DNA of 64,000 nt, from assembly GCA_963924565.1 (NCBI GenBank), contig OZ004612.1:26846001-26910000 (forward strand), read 5' to 3'. A model generated the notes under the pieces. It did no database searches. It was not told the DNA's origin and was given only the letters and a program-made list of their open reading frames with translations. Position numbers and translations under genes: made by a program. Positions within the stretch are counted from its first letter, which is position 1. The number at the start of each line of letters is the position of its first letter. This stretch comes from Ascidiella aspersa. Taxonomy: Eukaryota. This document shows positions 38,063 through 64,000 of the stretch, one piece after another.

Positions 38063-41000
38063 TCAAGCGACATTGTTCAACGAGAATATGTCGGAAATGC
38101 GAACGGAGCATGAATTGATTGTTACGTCACGAGGGGCGCATTGTCGAGGAACAATGGGCGACGGCTGCAACGAGTCGAGGTAGCTCCTGTAGACGAGGTC
38201 GAGGCGTGGCGCGCGGCAAGAACCGGCCCTCATCGACGCCCTTTTCCGTTTCCGTAATTCCGAATCATCGTTCCGTTTCGCCGCTTTTCCGTAATTAAGT
38301 CCAACTAGGTCGGGACAAGTAGGTATCGCCGAAGTGACAGTTTCGTCGTCAAGCACGGCCTTGACGTCATCGTGCTCAGATATGACGTCATCGTTCTCGG
38401 ATATGACGTCATCGTGTTCAAATCTGACGTCAACTAGATCAGCTCTGACGTCATCCTGATCGGGTATGACATCAGGCCAGTTGGTTTTAGTAACGAGGTG
38501 CTGGTCGTAATCGAGGTCAACGCGTTCTAGTTTGACGAAAACGTTGTCGGTTGTGGCGTCATCGCGTTCAGATATGACGTCATCATTATTGGTTGCGGAA
38601 CTCGTCTTGCTTTTGCCAGTTTCGGAGAAGAGAGGGAAATGTTTATCAACACAATCTTGAAGTTTCGCGTTTAACGACGATTCGTCAATAATTATGACGT
38701 CACTTAAGGCGCTTCTCGAGTCGACGTCGATTCCGCGCGACTTCCGCTTTCGCCAGAAGCGGTTCAGGGTGGGCAGCTCGGAGTCGCCACGCGATCGCTT
38801 CGTCATCACTTTCCGCAAATCCGGTTTGCCGGCGTTGAGCAGCGCCTCGACCTCTTTGCGGATCCGCGTCATCTTCTCTTCTTCGCTCTCGATAGAACAA
38901 GATGGCGGCGCAGATTGATTGACAGGTGAGGACAAGTGAGCTTGGTCTTCACTTTGCTCCGCTGCTTTCTCTTGTGTCGTTTGATTAACAGGTGAGGGCT
39001 GGGAAGGCTGATCTGATGTTTTCTCTTGTATAGAGTTGTTCAGCTGGTGTTCGACATGTGATGGGCGTACAGGAGGTGTTTCACTGATGGAAACCTTCAC
39101 CTTTAAGCCTTGATCTCCTACTTCTTCAAGCGTTGGACTCTTTTGCTTTTGATTGAAATTGGATCGGCGTGTTAAGTGCATTTCCGTGCTTGAAACGACT
39201 GAGGAGTTAATAGTTTGTTTTGCTGGTTGTGAGACAGAGCTGTTTTGTAGAAGCTGTGCCAGAATTGGCGATTTGCGTTCCTTCGTAGCGGATGTAGCTA
39301 AATCAACTATAGGGACTTGTCTAGTCTGTTGTACTCTTCTTTCGACGTGTTGGCTTAGCCTGGATATAACCAGCACCATCCGTACACTGGTGCATGGGAA
39401 ATAGGCCACAATGCGTGAAACGTCACCCGCGTTCTTTACAAGGAAGTAGCTCTTCTTGGCTTCACGAGCGCCGCCGCTCCAAGGACTCCTGGGCGGGAAT
39501 TCGACGCACACGAACATCTTGGTGCTTTCGTGGAGATGCGCAGCTATGGCGGCCTCGGCGACGCGCGGGTCGTCTGACAGTGCGTACATGACGTAATCGC
39601 GTGACCTCACGTCACTGACGTCCTTGCCTAGGAACCGACCGACAATTTGCGGCAGAACCCAGTCGTGGTGTATCGGCTTTCTTTGCGCAGTTTTCGAACA
39701 CGAGAGCAGAAAAGTCGCGTCGTCAGCGTCTTGAGGCTCTACGACCCGCGAATGCGGCGGCCACTGCTTATTGTTCCTTACCGTCTTTGCGACGGAATCT
39801 CCGGTCTTCGAAACCGGTGCTTGTAACTGGCCCCGCTTAATGTTCCTTGCCTTCATTGTAATTGATTCCTGTGGCGTTGAATGGTTGCCTCTGATCGAAT
39901 CGACCTTGCCCTGCAGTGAGAAGCAGTTGACGATTTGAATGTCGTCGCAGTTCTCGTTGTTCGGCGTCTTCTTTTGGTTGAAAGGGGACAACCGGTTGGT
40001 GGTTGTCTGCTGATGCTGAGACTTGTCTTCCATCTTTCTTCTGGTTTTGCTAAGACTCTTCACTTCCAAAAGGAGGTCGTCAAGAGTCAACTCGTTGCTT
40101 GGTGCTGTGCTGGGCACATCACCCTCTGAAAAACGACCCAACAAAGTTAGGATACGGTACCTATAGACTTTCACAACACGAGTTCATCCTGAAATTTCTA
40201 GAACTTGGGCGTCACTTAGATGCGCTAAAATTTTATCAAGTTGGAGGTTATATTTAAAAAATCGCGTCCCTGTTAAGAAGTAGTCAATCAATCTAGTAGT
40301 TAAATTTAACTTAAATCTTGCGACACAAAAATCGTTATTTTTTATTCCAATGCCAATTAATTTTAATGGAATTTTAAAATGCATGCTTTTAAAATTAAGT
40401 AATTTTTAATGCATGCTTTTTAAAAATAACTTTTTCCTGTTGGATTTAGTTAACTAAAGTAATAAGTATTTCGTCAAGTCATTAAAGTGTATATATGAAA
40501 TAAGCATTTGTAGAGTGTTGTTACTTTACAAGTTCGTAATTCTTATAGGAAAATTCAAATTTTATAAAAAATGTAAATTAGAATAAATGTCAAATATCGG
40601 CCAATGAAGGGTTTTAAACAACCAAGTTAACTTACCTGAAGTCACAACACGTATCAGCTTCTCTCCAAGTGATGGTTGTTGTAGTTGAGGGGAAGATTGA
40701 GGTGGATTGGGAGCTTGATGAGATAATTGCTGAATCTGAGGGGATTTTCGTTGATTTTGGGGAGACAATTGTTGGGTTTGTTGGGGGGAGACTCTTTCAG
40801 TTTGTTGTGACTGCTGAGTGCATTGCATCTGGTTTTCTAGGTTTGCAAGCTCTCTAGTCCGCCGCTGATTTAAAGACTGCAGTTGAACCTCGAAGGGAAT
40901 TTGTTGACTCTGCGTTGGTATTGCGGCATGTTGGTTGGGAGTTTGTTGGTATTGTGTTGAAATAGCTGATGAAAAATGGCCGTATTGTTGATTTGGTGGC

Positions 41001-41782
41001 GACGAGCGTTGACGCTGCTCTTTATGATTGGCTGTAGTTTGTCCTTTGGCGACATTCACAAACGGCTCAGGCGTCGTGGATGGCAAGTTGAGGTATTTAT
41101 CGGTCTCGGCATGGACCTGAGCATTGCTTTTGTAAGCGACGGGATTCATATGCTGGTTCTGGTTCAGGTGGTTTTCAAGCGACAATTCAGCGCTGTTGCT
41201 GCGAAAGTACTGCTTGGTACTGAGGGATCCTAGCTGAACATCGACCAATGTTCGCCTCACGACGTACTGCTGAGTGTTTTGAGGCATCAGCTTTGGGTTG
41301 TAGGCGCTAGACGGATGCTGTCCTTTCAGCATTCCACTCTGTTGCAACTGCATAGGAGTTAAATTGGGATGTTCATGGGATGGCTGTTTTTGTAAGGCTA
41401 CCAACTGGTTCACGTGGGTTTGCGGTTCGGGCAAGTTGCCCACGTTGATGTTGTACTGGATCACCTGCTGGTTAACGTTGCAGCCTGCCTGCTGATTAAG
41501 TTGGGTTTGCTCGGCGAAAGTCTGACCTTGGTTGTTCTGCATCTGACATTGATAAGCCCCAGCGGTCGCCGGCTGCTTCTTGTAATCTTCTCTTTTTGTG
41601 TTGTAAGAAGAGCTGTTGTGTTCAGGATGTTGATACGAGCGAACAGAGCTCCTTGGAAAGGCCACGTTCTGAGAAAAGACGATGGTCTGGTTGCTTTGTA
41701 CGCCGTGATTCACCTGACCTTTACCGTTGCTGTGGCTGTTGTTGGCCAAATGTTGCCAATGATTAGTCGCGTTTACGTCCAT
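38063..41782 (-). CDS. Uncharacterised Q-rich, low-complexity, putatively nuclear protein, paralog A (~1069 aa, 2 coding exons)
   Basis: join(complement(40636..41782),complement(38063..40125)). Phase-1 GT-AG intron (TCAG|gtaagt ... ttcag|AG); ORFs of 406 and 703 aa; colinear with paralog B; AATAAA at 37976-37971. Confidence 0.85.
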
Positions 41783-43099
41783 TTGGACGAATCTTTATGA
41801 GCAAAAATTGCTAGTTGATTTACAGTGTATTTTGTTTGCCTTACGATGACCTTCAGTTACAATAACAAAATTGGGAATGTTGAATAAACAAAGAATTATT
41901 TATAGTTAACGTAACTAAACAGGTAATTTTACTAATAAAACAAGTTGATTACATATGAGGCTTCTTTAAGTAAACAAAACTGAAGACTCACAAAAATAGC
42001 CATTCGCGATAAAACACAATAAAACCAATACCAAAAACACTGTCTAAGCTAATGTCAACTAAATATTTCCTTCCCTGATATTATCTGAAAACAATTCACA
42101 GCAAAAATTGTTAAAAAATCAAAATATAAAACACAGGTAGCTAGTACCAGTAAAAAAAATCCAGTAACAAAGAAAAACAAATAATTGAAACGACCATATA
42201 AGCTTAAATTTCATCTATATCTCGCATATGTAGTACCAGGGCAAAACATAAACAAGTTGTTTCTCATAACAGAGCGTATAGCAGCGAAATATAATAGACC
42301 AGTGATGTTGTGCAGTATGCTATACAGGAAACTGTTTCTAGTGTTTCGTGTAGTCCGGAAATACCTTGCATCGCACGACTTTTTGCTGCAGTACCCTGCC
42401 TTACAAATCCCCTTCTATATCGCTACACAGTCCCGCGGAATAAACATGTTCTTCTGTCCAAAGTAGTGAAACACAAACTGTATGCCGCGGTACACTAAAG
42501 TGCTTCGAGAGATTTTGTTAAGTGTGCTGTGAAACTTAGTGTAATTTAGGATTAAATAAGTTATTTGAATAAAATAGGCACACACGCAGACATTTCAGAC
42601 TTGAATACGCCTTATCCATTGATAACAATAAGACATTACACTTAGTTTGTCGTGTGTCATATCTAACCTTCAGTCTAATACAGCAAAACACCAGTAATTA
42701 ATGGAACAAAATCGGTGGCATTAGAAGTTTACTGCTACGTTTTATGCAATCGCATCTAAACTAGTCATTCAAGATAGGATTATCATTCCAAATAAATAAC
42801 TATATTTCTTTAAAGTTTTGCAAAATACTAACTAAAGTTTTTGCTAAATACTAACACTTACTCGTTTATATTTACTGGCCAAGATTTAACAATATAGCTT
42901 TGTTGCTGAATAGTGACGAAGAAACAAGAAACTTTCTACGAATCGCATTAGCAGAACTGCAAAGTTTGCAGAGGAGTACAACTTAACAGCAACAGCTTTT
43001 GCTAAAGCCTTTTTCGCTGAACCTGACTGCACTGCTGGACTGAAGCAGGTTGCATAAACTTAACTATCGAATCAGACCGACCTAAAAGTCACGGTTGCC

Positions 43100-43260
43100 T
43101 TTGTACTGGGCGCCTTTTTCTGTTTGACCTACTTAAAAGCTAGACCTTTCTAGCGCTGTAATGGGTAGCAAACTATCCCCAGTAAATATTATCATATTGA
43201 TTACTTGTCCAGCCGTGCGCCACGAATTCTAAAGAGGAAAAAATATCACAACGGAAATTT
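43100..43260 (-). promoter_or_regulatory. Conserved putative promoter block of paralog A, containing a RORE-like TTAAGTAGGTCA
   Basis: Non-coding conservation with 60220-60520. Lies just upstream of the inferred non-coding first exon (donor at 42861). Motif at 43136-43125. Confidence 0.5.
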
Positions 43261-43484
43261 GCCAGGCGTTAGGGGTCGGAAACGATTAATCGTGAAGCTA
43301 CACTTTGCTGAGCGCTCTGCAGTTGCTAAGATATCGTTTAAACTACTGTACACAAGATGTAGGCTCCGTGTAAATGCTTAACATGTGTACAACGCATGTG
43401 ACAAAGATCATATCGAACGGTAGCACGTCTTTATTAGCAGCGCACGCCAGAAAATAAACCAGACTAAGTCATGGCGCGAACGTC

Positions 43485-43883
43485 TAGTGTTGTTATCACT
43501 CAAGTCAATGAGTGTGACTTGACTTAAGTCACTGTTTTTTTTTTTGGCCTAAGTATTTTGGGTAGGAATGACTTGCCTTGACTTGAGTCTTTTGGAAAAT
43601 GACTTGGATTGAAATAACTGGTTTTACTTAAAGATTTTTTTTTGTAAAATTGAGCTTTTTGTTTTTGTTTTTATGACGAGAACACCAAATTATGACTTGA
43701 CTTGACTTGGCTGGGACTTAACTTGTTATTTATTCAAAAATACTTGACTTTGACTTAAGTTATTTTACAAATGACTTGACTTGGACTTAAATCATTTAAA
43801 AATGACTTGACTTGGACTTATATCATTTAAAAATGACTTGACTTGGACTTACATCATTTAAAAAAGACTTTAATACAGCACTG
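43485..43883. mobile_element. GACTT-rich MITE inserted upstream of paralog A (absent at the equivalent site of B)
   Basis: Ends tagtgttgtta / tacagcactg; degenerate TSD cgaacgtc/cgaactta; internal ~32-bp tandem x3; the flanks are contiguous in copy B (~60960-61000). Confidence 0.75.
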
Positions 43884-44619
43884 CGAACTTAAAAAATGAA
43901 CTGCTGGCAACAAACGACACAAATAATGGCTGGGTTTCTACGACCGCGAAGCAATAAACAATACAGTGACGCGCCAAGGCATTTTCCGAAGACGAAAGAA
44001 AAAAACAGGCCTGCCTACAAACCCTCACGGGCCGGTCAGACGGTCTCCGCAGCTAATCCCTTTTACAGCAGTAGTTCTTAACCTATCCAGGAAACTTTTA
44101 ACCAGTGGTCTTCTACTGTAGTTGTGTGACAATAGCAGGTTTAAACTATGTTGCATATAATTCGTTATGTTAAACAAGGCTAAAAAAGTATTGAAAAAAC
44201 TCTCCCCAATAGCGCCAACCACCCTTAATTACAGAATGTTTTATTGTGGCAGAGACAGAATATAACTAGTGACAATGATATGACATCTCTAGTATAGTCT
44301 AACAGCCTTGGTCGGGCAGTAATACGTGTACTACTGGTTGAGAACCACTGGCTCTACAGACTTAAACATAGCAGTAGGCTACACAAGACCGAAAAAGTTA
44401 ACGACCTTTGACAAACAATTTAAGCTTAGGTGATCGACAGTTTCGATTAGGTATTGGGCGAATTGCGGCTTGTTTGCTTTAACTGCGATCGCGAAAATCT
44501 GATGATATTATTTCCAATGGTTTGCTGTACAACTTGTAAGATAAACGCGTATAATCGACTTCTTGTTGGTTAAAAACAAATAAGGCATGTTTGTCAAACC
44601 TGATCCCATATAAATTTCC

Positions 44620-45232
44620 GGCGCTGGTCTAGAATCTTACCTTAGCGATTAAACTTTTTTTTTTTCGCAGTAACGAAACGAGTTGTCACAATTAAAATTG
44701 CAAGGAAGAAATAAATATGGGCAAATAAATCTAATACTTGACCCCGGGAGGGTATCCAGAAATCCAAAAAGGGGGAGTCACGAATTTTTAATTTAAGGAA
44801 TTCCCCGTTTTTCCGCCTGACGTTATTGACGTCATAAAATAGTGACGGGTATTACGTCATAAAATAGTGATTGTCATGACGACATAAATAAATAAAAAAA
44901 AAATAATCAGAAACCGTCTATTAACGTCCAGCAAAAGCGAAACTTTAGACCCAAAGCAAACACGTGCGTCGTCAACAATCCTGCCAGGCGCCAGCTGCAA
45001 AACCGCTTGGTGTGCAATCGTTAACTTTAGGGGAGGAACTAAACCAAGACCGTGAAATATGTGTGATTGAGATCCATGTACGGGAGTAGGCTACGCTAAA
45101 TTGCAAGTACGTTTCTCTCCACCTGCTATACTAAACGAAGAACGTTTTCACGGGTGTTATTCGATTAGCGCAACATCTGCGCCGGGCAATAAACCCCAGG
45201 ACTAAAATTTGTAAGGATTCTAGACCAGCGCC
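44620..45232. mobile_element. Non-autonomous TIR element
   Basis: 21-bp TIR ggcgctggtctagaatcttac / gtaaggattctagaccagcgcc; degenerate TSD aaatttcc/aaataccc. Confidence 0.75.
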
Positions 45233-46027
45233 AAATACCCACGCCTTAAAGAACTGCTTTGTCTACTTTCTCCCAAAATGTGGCTGAAAATGTGACAAAC
45301 CTTCTTTCAAATTTGTTTGCCTTGTCTTACACAGTAAATATGAACAGTGCTGACTTATTTTCTGTTTGCAATATGCCACATTCTATCGTATAGCACTGTT
45401 CATATTTACTGTGTTGTTAATACCGCAAAGGATATTAAATGTGTTTTCAAGCTTTAAATGGAACCAGAGAAGGCAGGGTTCTTTAACGCCCTGCGCAATA
45501 TCACGCGGGAACCTACATCGCCATAATTCTAATTTCATTTTAATGAAAACAGTCACGTGGTAGAAAACTGCAGTGTTGCCCTATTCGCTTAATAATTATT
45601 GCGCCTATCTGGAACATTGACCAGCAAAATTCCGGACATAAATAGTAGATAATCACAACAATAACAAAAACGGCCCCAATTTTTACCTTTATCTTCATGC
45701 TCGGCGTAGTCAAGTGATATTGGTTTCCGCCAAAGACAGTTAATTTATGTGATTCGAGATTTCATTCAATGGAATGCCAAAAAACGGCATTTAAGGCTTG
45801 CTCATGACTGCATGGTTAGCTGGTTTTAGTTCGCGGTTTAGATTTTTCTATTGTTGTCTACCGCGGTCAAAGGTCAACTTCGGTATTGACTTGGCTGGTT
45901 AATCGTCTGAAAAGTCCAAACCTCGTAGTCGTGCCGCAAGTGGTTAGCGTAGATTTGAATTGTCACCGGGTTAATCTTTAAATATGCGTTCGGCAGAATT
46001 TAATTTCGCGCAATAATTACAGCCATG

Positions 46028-46266
46028 AAGAGGCGTAGCCAGGGTATTTTGCGCCCTGGGGCAAACTATAAAATTAGCGCCCCCTCCTCCATGTTTAATC
46101 ACACTTTCTATTACATTTGCATAATAAACCTTACTTTATGCGAAAAAACGATTCAAATCTTAATAGAACATTGTATTTAAAGAAGAAGCAGCCTCATTTT
46201 GGCGCCCCTGTACCTTGGCGCCCGGGAACATATGTACCCCACCGCACCCCCCTAGCTACGCCTCTG
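46028..46266. mobile_element. hAT-type MITE (GGCGTAGC family)
   Basis: Ends agaggcgtagc / gctacgcctctg; gcgccc subterminal motifs; partial TSD cagcca. Confidence 0.7.
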
Positions 46267-47871
46267 CAGCCAGTATCCCGTTATATTAAAAATGAGGAAC
46301 ATTACAGGCTTAGACGTATTACAGGTGCTGCTACAGGCCGCTGGTAATATAACTGGTTGAAAATGTGAGAGACCAAGAGCTGGTTTCTTAACTTGGTTAA
46401 TCAGAAAGCGCCACAACTTACACCAATACATTTGCTCAACTATATTTATTGTAAATGTATCTCAATAACTTTCCGAGTAAACTCCTTTAATTGTTTTTTG
46501 TTTTCACTGTGGGATTTTTTTAAATCTATGCTATCACTATGTCAAAGCCTTTGAACTTTATTGACTTTATTATTGGACTTGAGTTGTTACAGTATGTCAA
46601 CAAAAATTTCAACAGGATTTGGCCACTATAGATAATTTTCAACACAACTCAAGATAGAAAAAGACGTAATGAAGTATCACGTCAAAAACAGGGATTTTTA
46701 CGCAACATGGTTTCAATAGCCACAAAGACAAGACTGGCGGTACACAATTATTCAAGATTCCACTACTGATTAATCACATGATTTAGCCTACCATACCTTG
46801 GTAAACCGCATCCCACACAAATGAATCGTTTACTGGTCATGACAGCGTGCACAGTTTTTCCTAATAGAAAAATTATGATACCGTGTCCAGGGTGCGCTTT
46901 GTCACTGAGCACTCTTAAAGAGTTTTAAGGTATTTTTGTGTAAATTCCATGTTCATACTCTGGCGTAAGCATTTCAACATCTCATAGATAATGTTCAAAT
47001 GCAAACCGAATATTTGAAAAAGAAGATATCAAAATAATGTTCAAAATTCCATTTTTGTAACGCGTTAAAACACTGACTTGAAATGTGTACATAACAGTCA
47101 CTGGCACGAAAAATAGATTTTCGGAGTATTTGAGTATTTTACTGAAATGTCACAATAAATGGAACTGAAACATCACAATCAACTTTAAACATGTAGGAAA
47201 ATGTAATTTGATGTAATACTCTCTAATCGTATACAAATAGTTGTATCATGAAGCTTACCAATTGAAAAAAAAATCAGACTCTTAAAACTTCTCAACTATC
47301 TCGCGGCACCTTTTAACATTGGAAGCGGCACCCCGGTTGAGAGCCACTGGTGTAAACGATAAAGAAAGGGCCCGTTATATACCCTTATGCCTAGGCCTAT
47401 AGGTGTAAATGATATCACTTTTCGGTAACATAATAAAATAAATGTGGCTCTTGGTTTCTGCTGACATTCCTGGCCTACAGAAAATGCGGACAAACTTTTC
47501 GGCGGAGATTATTCACTAGTAGGCCATACGCGCCAATTTCTTCTCGCTTCGAAAAGATCGTTTCTGCGGAAACAGGCTGTCTGTAATTCGGAGTGGACGG
47601 CGGACAAAACAATCAGCTACACAACTATTCGCCAATCAGATGAATTGAGGATTTCTACGGAAATCACGCAATATGGCCGTAGACTGTTAGCAGGCCTTGA
47701 GTTACTTACTGTATGCATTTGTATAGCACAATGGTTCCTAATGTTGTATGGCTAACGGCAGCGTTACTAGCATTTTTGCCAAGTGGTTAACTGTGATATC
47801 ACAATATATATAAATATACTTTTATTTTGAACGTTTCAAATAACTCTTTATTCATTTTTAACATCTTAAGC

Positions 47872-48203
47872 CAGTGCTTCTCAACCTTTTTTCGCGGCGA
47901 CCCAAATATTAAGGGTAAGTAAGACGACTGAGATTTGGCGACCCAATTGTTTTTTCTTGTAAGCGAACTACAAAAGCTAGCTTCTTATAGGCGAACAAAA
48001 AATAGGCATTAGCATAAAGAATTTCGTATTTTATTAATTATTATAAGACATTATTGTATTGCTTCCTTAGTTTTCTTAATTGATAAATTTTGCTCAGAAC
48101 CAATCTCAATTAGTATAAACATGTGAGCTACTGCGGTCGGCGACCCAACCAAATCAAACAGCGACCCAATTTTGGGTCGCGACCCATAGGTTGAGAAGCA
48201 CTG
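47872..48203. mobile_element. hAT-type MITE; a related degenerate copy abuts it at 48211-48475
   Basis: Perfect 15-bp TIR cagtgcttctcaacc; TSD tcttaagc/acttaagc; gcgaccca repeats. Confidence 0.85.
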
Positions 48204-51200
48204 ACTTAAGCAGTGCTCATGAGGTGCGACCCAAATTTGGGTAAACGTTTGATTTGGTTGGGTCACCCACTGCACGAATTAGATTTTTTGTAATTTATAC
48301 TGGGCAAAATATATCCAAAATTGCGACAACTGGGTAAAAGAGATGCCCCATATCAATTAAATTCGATTTTATTTATGATAATGGTGTTTCAACGTTGACT
48401 TACAAAAAGTTAATTTCAAAAAAATGGGTCGCCAAAGCTACGTTATTATACTTCACAAAAGGTTGAGAAACACTGACAAAGTGTGTCGTTTTTCGTTGTA
48501 CGGTTTTTATCAGCTATTAAATATCATACTAAATGTTAAAAATAAAGCAAAACAAACACACACGCATTTCCTGTCTTATACCCAACCTCTTATTTGGCAT
48601 ATAGGCCGTGTGCATATAAATCGCGTTGGTATGAGTAATACTAGTACGACACTATGCCGGTTTAGGTTTTTTGGGCTTTAATTCTTTAATCCTTTTGTTT
48701 TAGGTTAAATGTCAGACAATTTAGCAGTTATGACTTGCTTATTAAATACAAAGTGTTCTTGCAAGGCGTTTACTTTATTTAGGCCAGCTGTATTTTGGCA
48801 TGAGAAACGTATTTTTTAAAGGTAACTGTGTACAGGGCGGGTAAAGCATTTACGTTTGCGAATAACCTTTTTTCATAAATGACGTCATAACGTACATCAT
48901 AAACATCTAATTCTAAAAACACCCAATGTTTTCGAACGAGCTTATCCGCAAATATTTTTTAAATTGCGTATACTTTTGGTTTTAAATGAGACGTGATCAT
49001 TGGACACATGAGGATTTACATGTTTTTTCAAATGAAAGCAATTATATAATTAATTTGGCAGAATTTACACTTTGTACAGCTCATGAGTTCACACGGCGCA
49101 AAATGCCATAGTGTGGATGTCGCCTTTGAGCGGCAAAAATATATTTTTTGCTTCAAAGACCCATGGATATATCAAGCGCTTGTTACCAACATAGACCAAC
49201 TTTTATTGATAATTGTCCGTAGTTTAGTTTACAACCGAACAACGCACAGGGTAAAAAGAAGTCGAGTTGAGTAATTTAGTGTGCAGCTAAACGCGACACT
49301 TACAGGATATAAGTGGGGTGGAATTTAAGAACTGCGGCCTCGTTTTGCCGTTACAAATTACTCTTCTAAATACAATTCAATCACACACTGACAAATGGCT
49401 TCCTGCATAATGTGCACTGTGTACAGCAGTTGGCGGTGTACACTATACGGCGACTCCGTATAACTTCGTAATTAATCGGTTAATGCGAGTGTAAAAATTG
49501 AACACTTATTGGAACCTTAAATCGCGTTTTAATTGTTTTGCCATTATCTGGCGTGATGGAGTCAAAACAAGATTTACAATCTCATCCAGCGCATTTTTCC
49601 GGTGACAAGCCGCCATGTGGATAAAATATATTCAAAACAATTATGTTTTATCAATTGTAACAATCTCTTTCGGCTTAAAAAAATCTGAAATATAGCTCGA
49701 CCATGATTTCAAACTAATAAGTTGTCTGCGAAAGAAATAAGTCCTTAACTAGTTGCCAAGACCGTATAAAAAATGGCGTACAAGTCTAAACGGAGTGAAT
49801 TAGCACAACCGTGTAATCTTTTACTTGAGATTATTTTTATGTAATATATCCAACACGTGTTTTATGCACGTAAAATTTATTCTGGGCTCAAAATATTCGA
49901 TTGCGCCGCTTGTAACAAATTCGGTTCAAGCTCGGCGCTAATGCGACGCCATAGTCTGTTTGTGATGGTGCATGGTAGGAATTTAAAAGACGGATGCACA
50001 TACGTATGCTATTTAATCTTTGCCGAGCGCTTTGTGGTCCTATGCTTTACGACCGCCCGCTCCTTTTTTGTCTGAAAAAATGTTTATACATACAATTTCA
50101 TGACAAGCATCGACGATGACAAATGAAGAAACTTACACTTTTAAGTCAAGGTTTAGGCTTGCTTGACCACTAACGCTCGTTGCATAACTCCCGTTCAAGC
50201 CAAGGAAATTTAATTCATACACATTGACTTTTTCGGTTCCCTTTCCTATACAAAACAGGTGAAAATGTGATTCGCCGCGATGCCACGTATAGCATTATAA
50301 CTATGGTAATACAACAACAGGTGCTATTATTATCGTTGGTAAGTATATCACAAAAATACACGTGTGTGTGAATCCCACATTATTTGTCTCTGTATTAGTT
50401 ACAAAAGCTCTTGACCAAATGTGATGTCGATTTACTTGGCTTTTGGCCTTCATTAGCCTATTAGGCTACATGCAGATCCGTACCTACATAGGTTTGATCG
50501 GAAATATCCACAATAAAAAAACAAAACGTCAAATAGTTTATTAGCAGTAACCTTTCAAACTGGGGTCTGTTGACAAACTGGGTCCATACAACAGTCTTGG
50601 GAAGTCTGCGAAAATACTTTTTATATTTACACCAGTTTGTAGTAGTGACTGAATTAGTTACAAAAGTCTTTGACAAAACGACTTAATGACAGAATATCGG
50701 TTTGATTTAACGTCCTAACAAAGATTACCTCTAAGGAGTAAAGCAACAGGCGTGACATACAGATAAAAAGTAGGCCCCTCGTTAAGGCCCCGCGAGGCGA
50801 GATGCATAATGTTTCCCCCTTTGGGCGCCAGGCGTGCTTATCTTGTCACTTTATTTGCTAAAGATCGTCGACTACAACGTGTGGTAAACCAGGCAACTGA
50901 TAAATCTCTACTCAAGTCGGCCGGAATATTTTGTGCTGGACCTCTTAGTTAGCTTAGAATTACTACAACAATCGTTTTAAAAAGATCGGTTGTATCGCGC
51001 AGCCTTCGTATGCTCACGCGAGAAAGGTTTACTACATGAAATGTGAGAATGACGCACAGCTTCAAGCCTTCTAACACTTTTTTTCCCAACTAAACGCATA
51101 GTCGGTTGTACTTAGAAAATTATCACCGATATTGAAGCGGATAATAACTTAATTGATCCTCAAATATATTTTCCACTTTTTAAAAAAAAAATTCCCAACT

Positions 51201-51252
51201 AATATAATTCCTTTCAGGGCTCGAAACACCATATATATGTTTTGTTAGCTAT

Positions 51253-51319
51253 GTAGGAAATCGAACGCACGACCCGGGGATAACGTGACCACTATTGTAC
51301 CTACTGAGCTATCGGGTAT
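51253..51319 (-). mobile_element. Degenerate tRNA-derived SINE head
   Basis: A-box-like TAGCTCAGTAGG and B-box-like GTTCGATT at tRNA-like spacing; no intact cloverleaf. Confidence 0.4.
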
Positions 51320-54051
51320 CTAAAGAGCTTGGGAAAATTATGTATGTCAATTCAAGCCTATAATTTCTGCACAACTATTTATTAACCACGGCAGCGTCAC
51401 GCGCAAGTAGATTCGATGCAGAATGTTGGGAGCAAAGCGTCTCTATTTGATGTGCAAATATTTGCTACAAGGTATAAAAAGCACACAACAAACATTGGTT
51501 GTGTTAAAACGGGGTTTCTCTGTAAACATGGACTTTGCGCTGATATTCAAACTGGTTTAGGTGTAGCCTATCTATGCCAAAGTTTATTAAATATTATGTC
51601 TCAACCTTGCCTAACCTATAAATGTTAGAAAGGATTACTTCGGGACACAACTTGAAAAAAGTTGCCCAACCTAGGCTTAAGCTTACCAATACTTTTTCAA
51701 TCAAGGTATTTTTACCACAGTTTGCTTCGTCTTACCTATATTTATCGACGGTTCCTAAACTTGATTTATCATTAGACCTAAGCAACACGTGATGAAGAAT
51801 TTAGATTTTTTAAAGGCAACAAATGCGGATCTGCGACCGTTAAAATATAAAAAACACAAAACCTAGCGAAATATTTTCATCACATTTTTATTTCTGATAA
51901 CAAAATTGAAGGAAATTACATTACAGGAGACGGCCTGGTAAAACGGAGCATTTATTTTACCGAAACGATATAACTGCAAAATTATTTTTACCAGGACCCA
52001 GTTCTGGAAATTTACAGCTTACTTCCACCAATGGTGTAAACTCTTACATTTAGCAAGCAGATTCGTCTCTCAAAATGTTTATTAAATTTAACGAATTGTC
52101 AAAGCACATAATGACTCCGGGTAAGAACCAGACAAAACGAGCTGTATACTTGGCACTTGACGTTGCGGCTTAAAGCAGACGGTTAAAAACGATTTCTGAC
52201 AACTGTCTGGCAGAAGGCATGACTTTTGAGCTTACTCCGTGCGTTGTAGCAACAAGCGAGTTTTTCTTTTCTAAATCGTAATGCCTTTTCACTTTACATT
52301 TTTTGTCTTTTTGCGACATTTGTACTTATCAATTAGTTATACTACTTGAAGGCCAATCGTGATGCTTCGTTTTCTCGACATAATATTTTAGAACTTTTAG
52401 AATCGTTTAATCTTGGTTAAACAGAAAAATAAAAATAAAACTGACCCGCTGTGGCCACATAATACGTTTGACACAAAGTCACAAAAGCGTTAGATTGTGA
52501 ATGCTCCCGAAGTTAATCCATTGAAACTCGCGACGTAGCTGACAAAACACACAACCTCGGGGTGCCATTTAAAATGGTCAAACATAGATTCAGTAGTTGG
52601 AATCCTAGGAATTTCGTTTTTATTAGATTTAAAATCTGACAGCTATTTCGTTATTTTGCTCATCATCATTATGTTTTTTCTCTGGGCAAATCCTGATCAG
52701 GCCCACTGATTGCGGTGAGACTTTTCGAAAAACAGCCAGTATAGTACTAAATAATGTGTGCCAATTGTAAAATTGTTCTGAATCAATGCCTGGCAGCAAC
52801 AATTAATTAAAAATGTGTGCTGTTATTGTTGCTGTTATTGCTTGAATGTGTGCTGTTATTGATTACTTGAAATTCGTTATTGTTGCGGCAAAATCATTTC
52901 TTTGTTACGCCACAGTGACTAACCATTGTTACATGAGGTCGGTGTGGCTTGGCACCAAGTATTACAATTGTTGTGTCCAGACTTCGACTAACATACAAGC
53001 AAAAAAATTAAACCATGCATTTTGTTGTCTGCGTGTTGCTGTTTATACTTCTTTGTTGTGCTAGAACAGGATATTAAGATGATATTTAAGGGTGCGGCGA
53101 TGGATTTATTTTGTTAGATACTGTAAATGGTTGGGTACAACCAAATTAATCCATTAACGCGACACCAATATTTTAAAACGCGCTCTCGAGTAAATCAAAA
53201 CTTCGAAAGAAGCTTGAAAAGGGTCAATTATTGTCGTCAGTGTGTGACGTGTTATATTAAAAACAACTTCTAATTCAAATCGGCCAAAAGCCTTAAAAAC
53301 TTATTTGGTTCAAATTGTTTATCTAAACTTTATTTGCCCCTGTTTTTACTACAAAAATGTAAACAATTTTTGCGCCTCGCACGATCTTCTAGCCTATGTC
53401 TTAGCTAATATTAATGGAAATTTATTAGCTCTGTGGCGTCGTGGCTATGTCTTATCTTCCATTTGGCGCTATATCTAAGTTAGGCGACTGTTAATCGGAC
53501 TGCAGCTCAATTAGTCATATTTGTGGTTATGGCATTACCGATCGGTTCGTAATTATTCGACAACAATTGAAATTTTCGGTTTAAAAATGGAATAGACTTT
53601 TTACTGACTTGATAACTTGTAGTTCGAATACCTCTAACAGGGAATTTACTTTTTGACATCTTTTTGTCAATCTTATTTCGCCTTGGGAATAAATCTCATG
53701 CCTTACCCTACTTTTCAATGGTCTCGCTCGTATGGTGGGTACAATTACATTGCACTCCTCACCCTACGTATCTCAACCAAATACTGTAAATCCAAATGAA
53801 AGGTTTTACACTAAAGTCTTTTCGACTCTGCGTTTCTATGGAATTATAAATTAGAAGTGAATTAGATCGGTTTTAAGTAGTGCACTGGTGGGTTTTCACG
53901 CAACTCCATTTAGTCCATCCAGGGACTGAACAACAGTCAGCCAAAAAGAAATTTTGTGAGAAAACGTTTTTATTAAGAAATGAAAAGAAGTCGAAGGAAC
54001 AACATTTGGCAAAAAATCAGGGCGCCTAAAAATTGTTAGCGATTCACAGAA

Positions 54052-57000
54052 TTAAGCGACATTGTTCAACGAAAAAACATCGAAAATGCGAATTGAGCAT
54101 GGAGTGATTGTTACGTCACGAGGCACGCATTGTCGAGGAACAATGGGCGACGGCTGCAACGAGTCAAGGTAGCTCCTGTAGACGAGGTCGAGGCGTGGCG
54201 CGCGGCAAGAACCGGCCCTCATTGACGCCCTTTTCCGTTTCCGCAAGTTCCCGTTTTCCGCATCTTCGCTCCGTTTCGCCGCTTTTTCGCAATTGAGCGA
54301 GGTCTTTTCGGGATTCAACCGCTTCGTTGAAGCGACAGTTTCATCATCGCGTCGTGCCGTAAGATCATCGTGATCGTGTCTGACGTCATCGTGATCGGCT
54401 TCGACGTCATCGTGATCGCTTTTGACGTCACCACGACCAGATTTGACGTCAACTTGATTGACATTGGTGTCGCGTTGAAGGTTGTAGTCGAGATTATCGG
54501 GTTCCACCTTGATTACGACATTTTTAATTGTGACGTCATCTCGTTTGGATGTGACGTCATCATTTATTTTTGGGGAACTCGACTGGCCTTTTGGATTTGC
54601 GGAAGCGGAAAGGACACGTTTCTTAACACATTCTTGTAGTTTTGCGGTTGACTTAGTTTCGTCCCGCATTGTGATGTCACTTACGGTGCTTCTCGAGTCG
54701 ACGTCGATTCCGCGCGACTTCCGCTTCCGCCGGATGCGGTCCAGGGTGGGCAGCTCAGGGTCGCCACGCGATCGCTTCGCCGCCGCTTTCCGCAAATCCG
54801 GTTTGCCGGCGTTGAGCAGCGCCTCGACCTCTTTGCGGATCCGCGTCATCTTCTCTTCTTCGCTCTCGATAGAACAAGATTGCGACCGAGTTTGCTTGAC
54901 AGGTGAGGAAAAGGGAGCTTGGTCTTCTCTTTCCTCGGTTGTTCTTTCTTGCACAGAGCTAGTTAGCTGCTGTTTTGTTGGCGAGAGGCGTGTAGGGGGA
55001 TGTTCTGCGCTTGAAACATTCACATTTGAACCTTGTCCTTTTATTTCGTGAGGAGTTGGACTGCTTTGCTGTTGATTGACAGGACCTGGGCGTGTAGGGG
55101 GCGTTTTTGCGCCAAGATCCATGAGCTTTGAACCTTGGCTTGCTTGTTCTGCTGTGTTTTCCCGGGCTGGACTCTTGGTTTGCTGGTTGGTGGAGAAGGG
55201 GCGTGTAGGGGGCGTATTCGCCCCTGAAACGGCTGATACGTTTTCAACTTGCTCAGCTGGTGGATTTGAGATTGGGCTGTGCTGTAGAAGCCCTGATAGA
55301 ATTGGAGAATGGCGGTCATTGCTTGCATTTGTAGTCAAATTCACTTCAGGGAATGATCTAGTCTGTTGTACTCTTCGTTCGGCATGTTGACTCATCCTAC
55401 AAACGACCAGCACCATACGTACGCTGGTGCATGGGTAGAAGTTGACGATGCACAAGACATCGCGAGCGCTCTTTACAAGGAAGTAGCTCTTCTTGGCCTC
55501 TCTCATTCCGCTCCAAGGACTCATGGGCGGGAATTCGACGCACACGAACATCTTGGTGCGTTCTTGGAGATGCGCAGCTATGGCGGCCTCGGCGACGCGC
55601 GGGTCGTCTGACAGCGCGTACATGACGAAATCGCGTGACCTCACGTCACTGACGTCCTTGCCTAGGAACCGGGCGACGATTCGCGGCAACAAGCGGTCGT
55701 CACTAGTTGTCGAGCATGTACGCAGGAATTTCGCGTCGGCGGAATCTCCTGTCTCCAAAGCCGGCGCTTGTAACTGGCCCTGCTCGATGTTCCTCGCCTT
55801 CATTGTAATGGCTTCGTGCGACGTTAATCTGGTGCCCCTGTTCGAATCGACCTTGCCTTGCAGCGAGAAGCAGTTGACGATCTGGATGTCGTCGCAGATC
55901 TCGTTGTTCGGCGACTTTCTTTGGTTGAAAGGTGACAATCGTTTGGAGGTTGTCTTCTGATGCTGAGACCTTTCCTCCAGGTTCATCCTGGCCTTGTTTA
56001 GGCTCTCCACTTCCTTTATTAGGTTGTCCAGTGTCAAGTCGCAAGGAAAGTCACGACCTGTTGTTGCGCTGCGAACTTTGCTGTCTGAAAAACGAACCCA
56101 GAAAAGTTAGAAAACAGTTCCGAGCCGCGAGCTCTAAACCAGGTCCGTGGACCCCTCGGTACGTTTACTAATTTTGGGGGGTTAATATAAGTCTAATCTA
56201 AATTTAGGAGTATACCTTTTGAAAAAGAATCGTTTTTTTCAATTACTGTAACCAAGTTAAATGGTTTAAATGTAATTTTGCGTTGCCTTTATCAAGAGAG
56301 GCTATTAATACATCAAGTGGAGAAATTCCACAACTGTAGATGTTAGGTCAAATAAATCTGCATTTTTTCTATTCAGATGTACAAACAAAAATTAATTTAC
56401 CTAAATACTAAACATAAAACGTTATCGTTCGGATTTCATAGCATAGCGTACTGCTGTTTACTAAAACTTACCAGATGAAACTGCACGTGTTCTCTGCTCT
56501 CCAAGTGATGGCTGTTGAAGTTGAGGGAATGATTGTGGACGTTGATTGGGAACGTGGGGAGTTACTTGCTGGATGTGAGGGGATTCCTGTTGAATTGGAG
56601 GGGAACATTGTTGGTTTTGTTGGGGAGAAACTCTTTCAGTTTGTTGTGATTGCTGCGGTATAGATGAACGCGGTTTGGTTTGTTGATGTTGCAGTTCTAT
56701 GAACATCTGCTGCCCTGGAGACTGCAATGGAACATGGCAGGGAAGTTGCTGGCCTGAAGCTGGTATCGTTGAGTACATTTGGGGTTGCTGTTCGAACGAC
56801 GTTGCTATCGTTGAGTAAGCAGGTGGCAGTGGTCGATTCTGCGTTGGTATTGCTGCGTGTTGGTGCGGAGTTTGTTGGTATTGTGTTGCAACAGCTGATG
56901 GATGGTAGAAAGTGTAGGGCTGTTGATTTGGTGGCGACGAGCGTTGACGCTGCACTTTCTGTTTAGCTGGAGCTTTTCCTTTGATGACATTTACAAAGGG

Positions 57001-57711
57001 TGCAGGTGTTTTAGAAGGATAGTTGCTGTATTTGTCGGCTTGGGTTTTGGCGCTGCTGTTGGGTTTCATTTGTTGCTGTTTTGATTTTGGAAAGCTTTGG
57101 TCCGCGCTGTTGCTGCGAAAGTACTGCTGGGTGCTGAGGGATCCCTGCTGTACATCGGCTAACGTTCGCCGCACACCACCGACGTACTGTTGTGCGTTTT
57201 GGGTCGACATCTTTGGGTTGCAGGCTCCAGACTGCTGCAGCTGCAGCGGGGTAGTAGTGTGATGTCCAACTTGTTGTTGCTGTTGCTGATGTAAGGCTAC
57301 CAACTGGTTCACGTGGGTTTGCGTATCGGGCAAGTTGCCCACGTTGATGTTGTACTGGATTACCTGCTGGTTAACGTTGCAGCCTGCCTGCTGATTAAGT
57401 TGGGTTTGCTCGGCGAAGGTCTGGCCTTGGTTGTTCTGTATCTGACAGTGATAAGCACCAGCATTAGCCTGCAGCTTGTAATGTTGGAGCGCGCTCTTAG
57501 AAATTCGAACTCCGGCGTTGTGGTTTTTGCTGGAGTTTTGTGATTGGGCTTCGGCATGTTGATTCGAGCGAACAGAGCTCCTTGAGAAACCCACGTTCTG
57601 AGAAAAGACGATGGTCTGTTTGCTTTGTGCGCCGTGATGTGCCTGAACGCCGACTTTGTTGTTGCTGTTGTTCGCTGACTGCTGTAACTGGTGTACGGCG
57701 TGTACGTCCAT
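54052..57711 (-). CDS. Uncharacterised Q-rich, low-complexity, putatively nuclear protein, paralog B (~1090 aa, 2 coding exons)
   Basis: join(complement(56472..57711),complement(54052..56084)). Same intron position and phase as paralog A; the frame is preserved across many indels; AATAAA at 53974-53969. Confidence 0.85.
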
Positions 57712-58891: not shown

Positions 58892-60219
58892 CCAAACTGA
58901 CAGAAGAACACAGAGCACTATTTTCGTTTTACAGGAAGTTGTTGTTAATTGATGCGACGTGTGGGAAGTGATTTCAATTGTCCGGACATTGTTCATCAAT
59001 TAATACTGTTCGGCTGTGCTACTTTAGCACAATTCCCACATAACAAAAAAAACGTGTATTTCCTTTTAAAGAGACGACTTACCGGTGCCTTGGCAGGTAA
59101 TAATTATTGAAACTGGGCTTGTACATTTTAGAAAATTGTTTTTTAATATTTATTTAACTTATTAAGATTTAATTGTTCACCTAACAGCATCACACGATCA
59201 AGCGTCTGCCATGGACTAACCAGCACTATAGATTACCTTACTGTACTTGATTGTTAGAATACTCCAATCAGGAAATCAGGGGAGGGGTTAAGTCAGTGAT
59301 TATCTACCTTTATGGCTAACGACACCACTCGAAACTAATAAAGAGATTTTCAGGACCCGACTGGAATTTCAAGTATTTCACTGAAATGTCACTATAAATG
59401 AAACAGGAACATCACAAAATCAACTTACAACATGTACAAGGAAATGGCATTTGATATAATGGTCTCTAATCGTACACAAATATTTCAAAAAGCTTATGAA
59501 ATTGAACAAAAATCAGACTCCCAAATAACTTTTAGCACCCTAGTGCGTTAAAAATGGCACACCAGGGCGCCGCGGCACCCCGACTGAGAACCACTTGGTT
59601 AAGTAGTGGTGACAGTTAGCGCTTGGAACGAACCTAACTTTAATTGAGTTTTACATCGAATAGGCAAGAGTCCGCAATAATTATGGCTTTACTGACAAGG
59701 CCGACATCTAATTATGCTGATACAGTCGCCCGGGGCTCATGATAGTTATCGCAAGTTTTCGACCTAAAGCTGTACAGCCCGCCACAAGCAACGTTTACTG
59801 ATGTAAAACCGTTTTAATGTCGGCCGACAAGAGGGAACATTTAGGTTTACACTTGCTGGATTAAAAACTTCTAGTGATAGTTTTATTTGTTACTGTTCTT
59901 TAACTCACGACCCTAGCCTTTGATGTGCCTTCTATAGCCATCTATCATGCCTACAAATTACAAAACTTGCAGAGTGAAAGACAACCACAGAGACTTACTC
60001 GCCAAAATACACACCTGAACTATATTGTCACCGTAAACAAACTCAAAAACACATTGCCAATAGTACTACTTTCTTGTCAAGTTTACTGATTGTAATACCA
60101 GAACTTTGTCAGTCACTGCAATGTTTAAACGATAAGACTGCAACCACAAAACAAAAACCTGGTAAAGCACGCTGACTAAACGCTAGCCTGTCGAATCAGC
60201 ACTACATAAGGAACTCGTG

Positions 60220-60520
60220 CGTTTTGTACTGGGTGCCTTTTTCTTTTTGACCTACTTAAAAGGTTCAGGGCGCTGCTGGCAAAAGAGAGAAAACGCAAAT
60301 TAGAGCCACATTTTTGCCGCCCGCACACCGTGACCAAACAAACAGGCTGGAAGGGCAAGGGAAAAAGGCAAAGTTCTAAGCTATCCTGTCTGGATTCGTG
60401 TTTATCGACTTTCTGGCACCTTTTGTGGAAAGCAAACATTCCTCGATAACCCTGTCTGCTTGATTTCTTCTCCAGCCGTTTGCCACGAATTCCAGAGAGG
60501 AAAAAGGCGCACACGAAATG
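60220..60520 (-). promoter_or_regulatory. Conserved putative promoter block of paralog B, containing a RORE-like TTAAGTAGGTCA
   Basis: Identical ttgacctacttaaaag core (60247-60262) and a conserved ccagccgt..gccacgaattc block. Confidence 0.5.
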
Positions 60521-62793
60521 TGGTTTAAACATAGTTCGTAGAACTGAACTTAAAAAAAAATAAGAACATCGCAACATATACAAAGCAAATTGTTTTATGT
60601 GCAAAAATTAGGATAAATGACTCAATCTTATAACAAATACTTAACGAAAACACTTTATTTCAACTCAAGTCATATATCTAATAAACTTATGTCAAGTAAT
60701 TTGTCATAATGACTTAAGCCAAGTCAAGTCATTTGTCTTAAAGGGTTGAGTCAAGTAGTCGTCCAAAAACAGTGATTAAAGTGTACATAAATCAAGTCGG
60801 TGACGTAAGTTATTACAGCGTCCTTCCGAACGAGAAGATGGCAGTTAAGCTAATGTACAAAAAAAGGGTGTACCTCGCGTGTGGCAAATGCATTTCGTTC
60901 AAAAACAATAAGACACCTTTTTACTTCATTAGCAGCTCACGTCAGTAAACGAACCGAGCCTAAGTCATGGCGAACGCGCGTCACAATGAACTGCTGGTAG
61001 TACAGAACTTGGCAGATCACGGTGAGGCAATGAGACGCAGTGACGCGCTGAAGCATTTCCCCAAGGCGAAAGAAAAATACGCCTGCTGAAAACGCCACTC
61101 AAGCAGTTCTAGAGGTCATCGCCGCTCAGTACATTCTGCAGCAAGCTGTCACAGCAAAACATATGCTTTCAATGAAATGCTTAAATTTTTGGATACAGGG
61201 CTATATAATGAATTGTAAAACGTCGCCCCAAGTGCTGGTCGCAGGTTTTAAATTGTATTTGATTTAGTGCTGGAACGTGAGAACATAATTTACGACAGAA
61301 AAAAATATGGCACTTGCGTTTGTTTTAGTTTAGACTCTGCTTCATAAAGCTGAAAGCTACATGCGTACGATTTGAAAGCTTTGCTTACCTCTAGGCTACT
61401 CTGACACATGAGCACAAGCTAAACGTACTACATGATTAAGCATTGTGGCTATGGGTGGGTAACATTGTAAAGTGACAAAGAGCGAATATAACCGATGGTA
61501 GACGCTATAATAAGTCATTTCATTCTTTAGCTGCTGACAATTCCGGAAAGCTGTTCTCTAGAATAACCTAGAGCCTTTGCCGAGCAGATATAAGTGTACT
61601 ACTGGTTAAGGACCACTGATATACAGACTTAGCAAAACGCCAAGAAATGTCGATTACCTTTGGCAAACAAACCAAACAATGGTAGCATTATAAGCAATTT
61701 TCGGGATTTTCTTTTGCGAATAGCGTGACCTTTGTTTCAACTATTGCGTAAATGCTGTAATGATTATACTCTAGGTACAACAATTTCATTCCACTATCAA
61801 ATAAATACGGAATTTGATAAGCTTAATCGCTGTTTTGAGTGTTGGATATAAAATATTCCCAAATAAGGTTTTGAATTTAAAGATGCAAGTAACGCGTCGG
61901 CCAAAACAAGTTGAAAATTCACGAAGCTCTTGATTGCGTTTGCATTGTCTTATCTTACACCCGAATAGAGACGGTTCGAAGACTATCAGGGTCATGTGGA
62001 ACAACTGTACGACCTCCAAAAAATCTGTACGGTATCATTTCTTATTGTTTGTGATATTTATCGAAATATACGGGAAGTTTTTCCGTCATAAGTGGACATT
62101 GCTTTTTCTGCTTTTAGAATGAAAAATTTTAATGACGCAAACAAACTTTAAACCGTGACTTTAGTAACTTGTATATGCTTTTGGAGCAAGTGTGGTTCTT
62201 GCCAATTTTTAAACATTCAGTATAGAAATATTAAAATTTTACCAAGTGGCACATGATTGAAATGTGGCTTTTTGTTATGTGCAATAAACCGCCCTTCAAA
62301 AAAAAAAAGGTTGTGAACCACTAGTATAGGTCATCAGCTGAAACGTGATGCTACCGGAAATCCCTATAGTTGGTTGCACTGGCATATGTCGGCGACCATA
62401 CGTTGCTTACAGCAATACAAGTCACGACTCCAGTCCAACGGCTGCTCTGTGACTTCAAGCGACATGACAAGCTGGTTTAAAAAAAAACAACTAAACAGCA
62501 CTTAACTCAAATAATCTTCTGAAAGCAAGTAGATTGGATAATACCAACACTTAAGCAAAACACATAAATTTCTGTTCACTGCGTATTTGACGTTTTGCCT
62601 TCAGTGGTTTGTCGAATATATTTAAACTATCCTAAAACACTCCTAAGCAACGAGCAGTTATCGAACTTTTTTAGATGAGCAAAGTTATGTGTGTGAGTGA
62701 GGAAATAACACATTTTTGCAACGTGTTGTTCATTGCGGTTAGTTAAGTAAAAAATGCGGCTCTTGGGCCATGACTGGTTTCCTGGTGTCTCGG

Positions 62794-63195
62794 CAGTGGC
62801 GTAGCCAGCCGAAAATTGGGGGGGGGGGGGGCAAAAAGTTTGGACTTATATGTTTAGCTTTTGTCATTGTAGTAACTCCTGTAACGAACACAAAAACAAT
62901 GCTAGCAAACCTTTTCGAGCAGCAACTGAATGAGTGTTAAACGCAATACCCAAAACTATTAAAAGAGCAAAAACTGTCTAAAAGTAGTAAAACTACATTA
63001 ATGTATAGCAAACGTAATATTAACTATAACGTTTGCGACGTTGCAATGCATGGCAATTAAAGGTGTTGTATGTCTGTGATCGAATGTTATGGTACTGCTC
63101 ATAAATGCTAAAAAAAAACAAATTATTAGGAATAAATTTGGGGGGGGGGGGGTGGAGCATGGCCCCTCAGTCAGCCCCCCCTGGCTACGCCTATG
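62794..63195. mobile_element. hAT-type MITE (GGCGTAGC family)
   Basis: Ends cagtggcgtagccag / ctggctacgcctatg; perfect TSD tgtctcgg; internal poly-G runs. Confidence 0.88.
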
Positions 63196-64000
63196 TGTCT
63201 CGGTGGCAATTAGTCACTCAGCCATATTCTCGAAAGTTTTTCTAGCTTTACCAGAGCGTACTTTCGGAAACGGGCTGCTTGTAAATCAACAAGGATGGCG
63301 GGTAAAACAAGTAACTACAATACTCGTCGCGCCAATCATATGACGGTCGCCTGTTAGCAGGCTTTAAGTTACCGCGACAACAATTATCAAAAGTATACGC
63401 CATAGCCACTGTAATAAATAGTTGACTAAATAAATAAAAATGAAGCAATGTGATACACGCCAAACTATTCACTACAGCATTTAAACGCTTTGCCTAAACC
63501 AAATTTGTTCAATCCTTTTTTATAGTTTGTTTTCATGAAACGTTTTAAACTAATGCAGGCGATTAACATAGTAGCAGCTAATTTACGGCGAGGTATAGTT
63601 AGGTAATTAGTCGATTTGTGTGTCGCAGACTAGATCGGGACACAATCCCCAAAGTAGCTGCTAAGGATAGGAATGACTTTACTTTCTCGAGCAAGACGTT
63701 TATTGGTCAGAACGATAATCAGTATACGGCAAATAGTGCTCGCATAAGGCTACAGCTTGTCTCTAACCAACGAGATTACAAATTGTGCTCAAAATACGTT
63801 CGATTCTCTAGGTATCCACCCGACGAATCCTGATGCAACACAACGCTATCCAAAACGAAATCGCACACAAAGATATCAGGCAGCGCTGAGAAAGGGGGGC
63901 TACGAAATTTATGATGTCAAGTTACTCGACCTTTTCAGCTTTAAGAATCATTACGTCACAAATTTAATTATTGTAGCCCTTTTGTGCCAAACGATTGAGC

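Follow-up and report, generated by a model that had tools for sequence, protein, structure and literature searches.

The RRM is built from elements in the order beta-alpha-beta-beta-alpha-beta. Among proteins that contact HP1, fly ATRX carries a CxVxL variant that binds it (PMC2324200), and the fly consensus for the HP1-binding motif has three to six basic residues in positions -4 to +4 (PMC12526061), both as given in the available portions of these papers. In the clustered protocadherins of fugu, homogenisation of patches at silent sites has been used to call regional gene conversion (available part of PMC1852091). The present study concerns a 64,000-nucleotide stretch of the 308.6-Mb genome of the tunicate Ascidiella aspersa (contig OZ004612.1, here C6, positions 26846001-26910000; hereafter the window), and in particular two genes within it, A and B. 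We find that they belong to a genuine family, restricted to its lineage, whose domain is unassigned and whose mode of evolution is known. An earlier sequence-only reading had already called the family lineage-restricted; this holds for the collections searched, among which other tunicate genomes were not included, so that orthologs in related species or a remote known family may exist.

Four long minus-strand frames combine into A and B, each intact and of two exons. Gene A runs from an ATG at 41782 to a stop at 38063 and encodes 1069 amino acids with no internal stop, while gene B runs from an ATG at 57711 to 54052 and encodes 1090 amino acids (feature positions are those of the window throughout). 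This agrees with the earlier description of two intact paralogs of ~1.1k residues with the same exon structure, the phase-1 intron lying at the same place in both, and the shared block of ~105 residues, the charged helix and the C-terminal tail quoted there were all found where they had been placed. The domain of gene B matches that of gene A far beyond chance (E 3.8e-57, 81% identity). The pair is real but is not the whole family: A and B are two of six paralogs, with seven copies of the domain, in one 120-kb cluster, the other four genes lying just outside the window. Searching the genome with the domain gave at least seven matches, every one within 26.88-27.00 Mb of C6, while helix, tail, N-terminus and helix-block DNA each matched at least six times within this cluster, no seventh copy of the helix-block DNA being found. 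All six genes have intact frames (991-1259 amino acids) and one common phase-1 intron, two being oriented one way and four the other, and their introns and far flanks are mostly unalignable. From the open frames and the GT..AG phase-1 intron at the same place in 6/6 genes we infer the splice of A and B, which gives the following features.

40636..41782, minus strand: gene A exon 1, the Q/N-rich low-complexity N-terminus, residues 1-382 (stranded RNA reads).
41399..41536, minus strand: gene A conserved Q/N block, residues 83-128 (replacement/silent ratio 0.26, p 2e-4).
40126..40635, minus strand: gene A phase-1 intron, 510 nt, GT..AG (same place in 6/6 paralogs).
38063..40125, minus strand: gene A exon 2 through the stop codon (open frame, RNA reads).
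39929..39946, minus strand: gene A DDIQIV, a sequence motif that we take to be like a SUMO-interacting motif (SIM).
39326..39655, minus strand: gene A conserved domain (residues 540-649; net charge +5), for which beta-alpha-beta-beta-alpha-beta and flanking helices are predicted.
38810..38899, minus strand: gene A amphipathic charged helix, identical across 6/6 proteins (4 silent, 0 replacement changes).
38735..38800, minus strand: gene A basic stretch, putatively like a bipartite nuclear localisation signal (NLS), judged from sequence only.
38525..38536, minus strand: gene A SUMO-consensus-type site, a class we take to be hydrophobic-K-x-E, within the acidic repeat region (in 5/6 paralogs).
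38066..38254, minus strand: gene A C-terminal tail with RKRKR basic cluster, short helix and CSVRI motif (ratio 0.25, p 1e-4).
56472..57711, minus strand: gene B exon 1 (open frame, RNA reads).
56085..56471, minus strand: gene B phase-1 intron, 387 nt (GT..AG, joining of frames).
54052..56084, minus strand: gene B exon 2 through the stop codon (open frame, RNA reads).
55363..55689, minus strand: gene B conserved domain, residues 546-654 (sequence match and predicted model).
54787..54876, minus strand: gene B charged helix (paralog alignment and predicted model).
54055..54243, minus strand: gene B C-terminal tail (paralog alignment).

The domain and the family are unassigned in every collection searched. 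With the HMMER filters in place, Pfam yielded no family at E up to 10 for any of the seven domain copies, and four exons together with the domain gave only two Pfam hits, both under the cut-off (E 0.1 and 0.58). No usable hit came from PDB sequences (best E 0.56 and 1.2), from ESM Atlas (best 0.76, and none in a second search) or from a phage tblastn (E 0.3); word-based protein searches with alignments of the domain, C-terminus and N-terminus likewise gave none, which by the nature of the method is weak evidence. The sole hit in a profile search of 1.84 billion representatives, the tandem-repeat protein P0001, was rejected as spurious. For Pfam, PDB sequences, the 1.84 billion representatives and ESM Atlas, the blocks are as unrecognised as they had appeared at first sight. 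No paper on the family was found in a literature search that left supplements outside its range, and a tunicate database may hold an annotated member.

The way the copies evolve, probably by regional gene conversion, is one already known. Where the blocks are nearly identical, their silent sites are nearly identical too, with a divergence of 0.06-0.10 in three blocks against 0.33-0.44 in the linkers, and fourfold columns are invariant at 46 of 58 positions inside the blocks against 43 of 97 outside, the blocks having been chosen after the fact. Silent divergence drops as GC at fourfold sites climbs (rho -0.64, 35 windows), and this GC reaches 0.84-0.86 in the paralogs against 0.41-0.49 in neighbouring genes. 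Between paralogs g1 and g6 the difference is 2% in the first 130 codons and 28% in the second linker. The ancestry of the copies is mosaic: three of eight segments decide between the two main gene trees and disagree, the first 130 codons rejecting the tree of the later linkers (approximately unbiased test, p 0.0125) and the later linkers rejecting that of the first 130 codons (p 0.003 and 1e-4). Low silent divergence, GC and tree conflict together indicate that the shared patches are likely kept alike by regional gene conversion between paralogs. Since the likeness extends to silent sites, protein constraint cannot be its cause, and because of conversion the identity of the blocks overstates functional constraint; homogenisation extends to the basic stretch behind the helix and to the 5' half of the domain, neither of which shows significant constraint. 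RNA structure is not supported as the cause of the low silent divergence, the blocks concerned giving no signal (z +0.2 to +1.3), and Rfam held no match for them.

Constraint on the proteins was gauged by counting distinct changes among the six genes and applying a binomial test, in which mutation bias and conversion are ignored. The domain (~110 residues) has a nonsynonymous/synonymous ratio of 0.37 (p 3e-8), which denotes purifying selection; the charged helix shows no replacement among four changes (p 0.002), and the ratio is 0.25 in the C-terminal tail (p 1e-4) and 0.26 in the N block (p 2e-4). Linkers stand at 0.64-0.77 and may be near neutral, because the tests ignore mutation bias. The clearest case of constraint is the 3' half of the domain, where silent divergence is high (1.37 per site) and the ratio still 0.32 (p 7e-8). 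No block has a replacement excess beyond 1.07-1.17, on few sites. Block conservation had been taken as a sign of function; this stands for the domain, which is under purifying selection, but part of the likeness is homogenisation at the DNA level, as the silent divergences above attest. The block-wise comparison proposed at the same time thus comes out with a domain ratio well below 1, and transcripts are present.

Transcription was judged from one RNA run bearing the same species label, of which ~6% was read and whose tissue and stage are not known. Gene A drew 16 reads at 92% likeness, all in the orientation expected of a minus-strand transcript in a usual stranded library, with none in two bins wholly inside the intron and some in two bins downstream of the stop. 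Over gene B, depth was 1.0-3.9 in the coding orientation against 0 in the other, and 0 over 48670-52671, at 85% likeness, where paralog reads can contribute. The family is therefore transcribed at a low level in that sample. Strand-specific reads lie on the exons of both genes; as to splice support, which the RNA check suggested earlier was also to give, no junction read was listed for A or B in the ~6% of the run. Among the 40 of 122 variants listed from two DNA-like runs, many are paralog letters.

The fold of the domain was predicted with AlphaFold2. For the seven copies, the best model (pLDDT, the predicted local distance difference test, 70.9) is built of four strands and two core helices, arranged beta-alpha-beta-beta-alpha-beta, with further helices at the flanks; a second run (gene B first, 558 residues) gave the same order, with the rest disordered except for two isolated helices. 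In these predicted models the core has a pLDDT of 60-84, and the tail lies below 50 in the second run, in which packing of helix and tail on the domain was looked at. A compact alpha/beta domain is thus predicted inside an otherwise disordered chain, much as the sequence-only reading had supposed. The domain is basic in 7/7 copies (net charge +2 to +9), and aromatic residues are predicted on strands 1 and 3. Fold searches with both models rank a designed protein, 9bk5, first (Z 6.0 and 6.3), and no match exceeds Z 6.3, values below 8 denoting in this tool a common arrangement only. The natural neighbours of both models are the ATP-grasp lid (B) domain and the little finger of Y-family polymerases (Z 3.6-5.8, root-mean-square deviation (rmsd) 2-6 Å, 3-17% identity); for the little finger (IMS_C), the values are Z 3.7-4.6 and an rmsd of 3.6-6.4 Å over 70-88 aligned residues. 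We take these neighbours to have the reversed-ferredoxin strand order, the mirror of the RRM, a label not confirmed in the literature search. The RRM is absent among the 50 fold-search matches listed, which does not exclude that family. Neither PDB nor viral models gave a Foldseek match at E 0.001, and Y-family polymerases recurred among the results (best polymerase kappa, E 4e-3). Profile homology to nine little-finger sequences was not found (hhalign probability 0.42%, score 14.0, with 4 of 30 column shuffles scoring higher), in a test made weak by the low effective number of sequences (Neff 1.5 and 3.5). A Y-family polymerase was rejected, there being no polymerase core and no Pfam hit in the exons of A or B, with the rest of exon 2 predicted disordered; an ATP-grasp enzyme was rejected too, the match being lid-sized (~80 residues, Z up to 5.8), with no three-part fold and no Pfam hit.

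Several features of single genes may be recorded here. Paralog g5 (C6:26947420-26951856) carries the domain twice, with ~190 residues between the copies. Paralog g6 (C6:26999155-27002626) has lost ~90 residues in frame and stops 15 residues short; despite this truncation, its first 130 codons share 98% identity with gene A. The acidic heptad-like repeats (38300-38700 and 54350-54560) are encoded by near-palindromic DNA units, and this DNA folds better than shuffles (z -3.9), probably as an effect of the repeats. An acceptor-like AG (41851-41852), with a similar 20-nt stretch directly after it, stands ~63-75 nt upstream of the ATG in 6/6 paralogs and may mark either an intron in the 5' untranslated region or a trans-splice site.

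Location, ligand, partners and role can be proposed from motifs. Glutamine and asparagine make up 28% of the first 380 residues of gene A, RKRKR is present in 6/6 paralogs and the SUMO-type site in 5/6. The disordered conserved tail holds an alternating hydrophobic pentamer with a central Val or Ile in 5/6 (CSVRI in 4/6, CSIRI in the fifth), with one basic and one acidic residue in the 9-mer (-4 to +4) around CSVRI, and the genome has a match to the HP1 chromoshadow domain, which is split by an intron. On account of two basic import-type signals, the SUMO-type motifs and two amphipathic helices, we infer with a probability of about one half that the proteins are nuclear scaffolds or transcriptional or chromatin co-regulators. 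In such a scheme the two basic clusters would import the protein into the nucleus, where the basic domain might dock on nucleic acid or on an acidic chromatin partner. The Q/N-rich first third would supply weak multivalent contacts, in activation or condensate formation, while the two amphipathic helices and the SUMO- and SIM-type motifs would recruit conserved partners. Patchwise DNA exchange between copies would keep the partner-binding pieces interchangeable and let the linkers drift.

A number of points weigh against this picture. Neither experiment nor homology links the proteins to the nucleus, and motifs of the NLS, SUMO and SIM types are short and often met in disordered sequence; the ~90 residues missing from g6 include the SUMO site and half of one NLS, and the last 15 residues of g6 are missing as well. 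Residues 555-600, the half of the domain with the highest identity, have no significant replacement deficit (0.62, p 0.21), and there is none in the basic stretch that follows the helix (ratio 1.07); the binomial tests, besides what they ignore, were applied to low-divergence blocks picked after the alignment was seen. Only one of the five models of the first fold exceeds a pLDDT of 60 (the others reach 57-60), and the alignment is so shallow (Neff 1.5) that the strand order may be wrong. Expression is low, seen in a single run of unknown tissue with 6% read and with possible cross-mapping of paralogs, and only 5 of the 16 gene A reads are at least 99% alike.

Other accounts of the family draw on the same evidence. 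The predicted beta-alpha-beta-beta-alpha-beta order is that of the RRM, the domain is basic with aromatics on strands 1 and 3, and Q and N form 25-29% of the first 380 residues across the family; the proteins could accordingly bind RNA, combining a degenerate RRM-like domain with a prion-like N-terminus, and serve in nuclear RNA processing or in germ granules. We consider this unlikely, if the least so of the alternatives, as 0/7 domain copies match any Pfam family even at E up to 10 and both models are ranked beside ATP-grasp lid and Y-family little-finger domains. Distinctly doubtful is a role as heterochromatin or transposon-silencing adaptors, which would reach HP1 through the C-terminal CSVRI together with the SUMO system and would have been amplified in germline conflict. 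CSVRI (four of six tails, with CSIRI in a fifth) resembles the HP1-binding CxVxL of fly ATRX, as set out in part of PMC2324200, SUMO-type and SIM-like motifs are present, and the genome has its chromoshadow match. The 9-mer around the motif, however, has one basic residue against the three to six of the fly consensus in the portion of PMC12526061 available, the pattern occurs 2-4 times per protein by a loose regular expression, g6 ends at this motif, and the want of a replacement excess (none beyond 1.07-1.17, few sites) does not favour conflict.

The blocks might instead be alike mainly by DNA-level causes, conversion or a nucleotide element, in weakly constrained young genes of minor function. 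To this we give no more credence than to the HP1 adaptors: in the basic stretch and in half of the domain homogenisation is as strong at silent as at replacement sites, the linkers stand at 0.64-0.77, expression is low and g6 is truncated, but the 3' half of the domain keeps a ratio of 0.32 (p 7e-8) at a silent divergence of 1.37 per site, six long frames persist while the introns are unalignable, and the blocks have neither RNA structure (z +0.2 to +1.3), nor an Rfam match, nor a seventh helix-block DNA copy. Highly improbable, finally, is a mobile-element origin, by which a domesticated or selfish gene, either ORF1/gag-like or for a DNA-binding module of little-finger kind, would have spread locally. 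The orphan status of the family, the mixed orientation of the copies and the recurrence of Y-family polymerases in Foldseek (best E 4e-3) would suit such an origin, yet 6/6 copies sit in one cluster with a common intron, the similarity between copies stops near the exons, and the profile set against nine little-finger sequences gave a probability of 0.4%, inside the shuffled range.

The nuclear scaffold or co-regulator that we prefer also has a bolder form, which we hold to be quite unlikely: the domain would be an undescribed module that binds nucleic acid or chromatin and has a strand order like that of the little finger, not that of the RRM, and it would found a tunicate-only HP1/SUMO-linked chromatin regulator family whose six copies share docking pieces by conversion and vary their disordered linkers. 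If true, this would amount to a paralog code for a nuclear protein, comparable to that of the protocadherins at the cell surface, and a domain binding DNA or chromatin would mean that the invertebrates most closely related to vertebrates had made a regulatory module within their own lineage. Eukaryotic folded domains without a relative among 1.84 billion representatives are uncommon, and the present one is small, basic and easy to express. The cluster also offers a compact example of conversion acting patch by patch within a single exon, and it cautions against reading block identity between paralogs as evidence of function in itself.

The surroundings of the cluster contain other genes. On the minus strand of the window, ~14900-34030 holds exons of a Nup133/Nup155-type nucleoporin gene. 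Upstream lie tandem MFS transporter exons, two short-chain dehydrogenase frames and a galactose-3-O-sulfotransferase exon (window 6076-6318, L022:7207-7458, L024:9561-9812 and L025). Head to head with g6 stands an uninterrupted frame of 1012 codons with TPR repeats (L016:4787-7822, minus strand), which has a weak nucleotidyltransferase-like match under the cut-off (DUF294, E 0.005). Four phospholipase A2 exon matches between g5 and g6 (L014:1644-1931, L014:7065-7286, L015:4931-5158 and L016:770-1039) form a second tandem family within the cluster, and C6:27039941-27050000 is an array of ~2-kb units, 85-97% identical. Dispersed repeats occupy 44668-45334, 46002-48669, 59342-61342 and 62677-64000 of the window, with both-strand RNA reads from other copies. 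In the genome as a whole, the GH6 domain of the tunicate cellulose system (PMC7464555, PMC6523144) has one match over the cut-off (E 2.2e-4), which accords with a tunicate but is a weak sign taken singly.

Compared with known systems, the family resembles what we take to be the class of prion-like Q/N RRM proteins in the element order of the domain, its basic charge and a low-complexity Q/N region, and differs in that 7/7 copies have no Pfam match, the strand order of the present domain being predicted only. The ATP-grasp lid and the little finger (IMS_C) are the nearest natural fold neighbours of both domain models, but all matches are at Z below 8, no catalytic domain is attached here, and there is no profile similarity to little fingers. 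With HP1 partners that use PxVxL or CxVxL, such as fly ATRX (part of PMC2324200), it has in common a conserved C-x-V-x-I pentamer, here in a disordered tail; that tail is without the basic flanks of the fly consensus (part of PMC12526061), and the motif is lost in g6. The fugu protocadherins, as the available part of PMC1852091 describes them, are alike in being tandem paralogs with patches homogenised at silent sites, and with raised third-position GC, beside divergent patches. Only this evolutionary mode is in common, there being no sequence relation, and the present cluster has several short converted patches in a disordered, probably intracellular protein.

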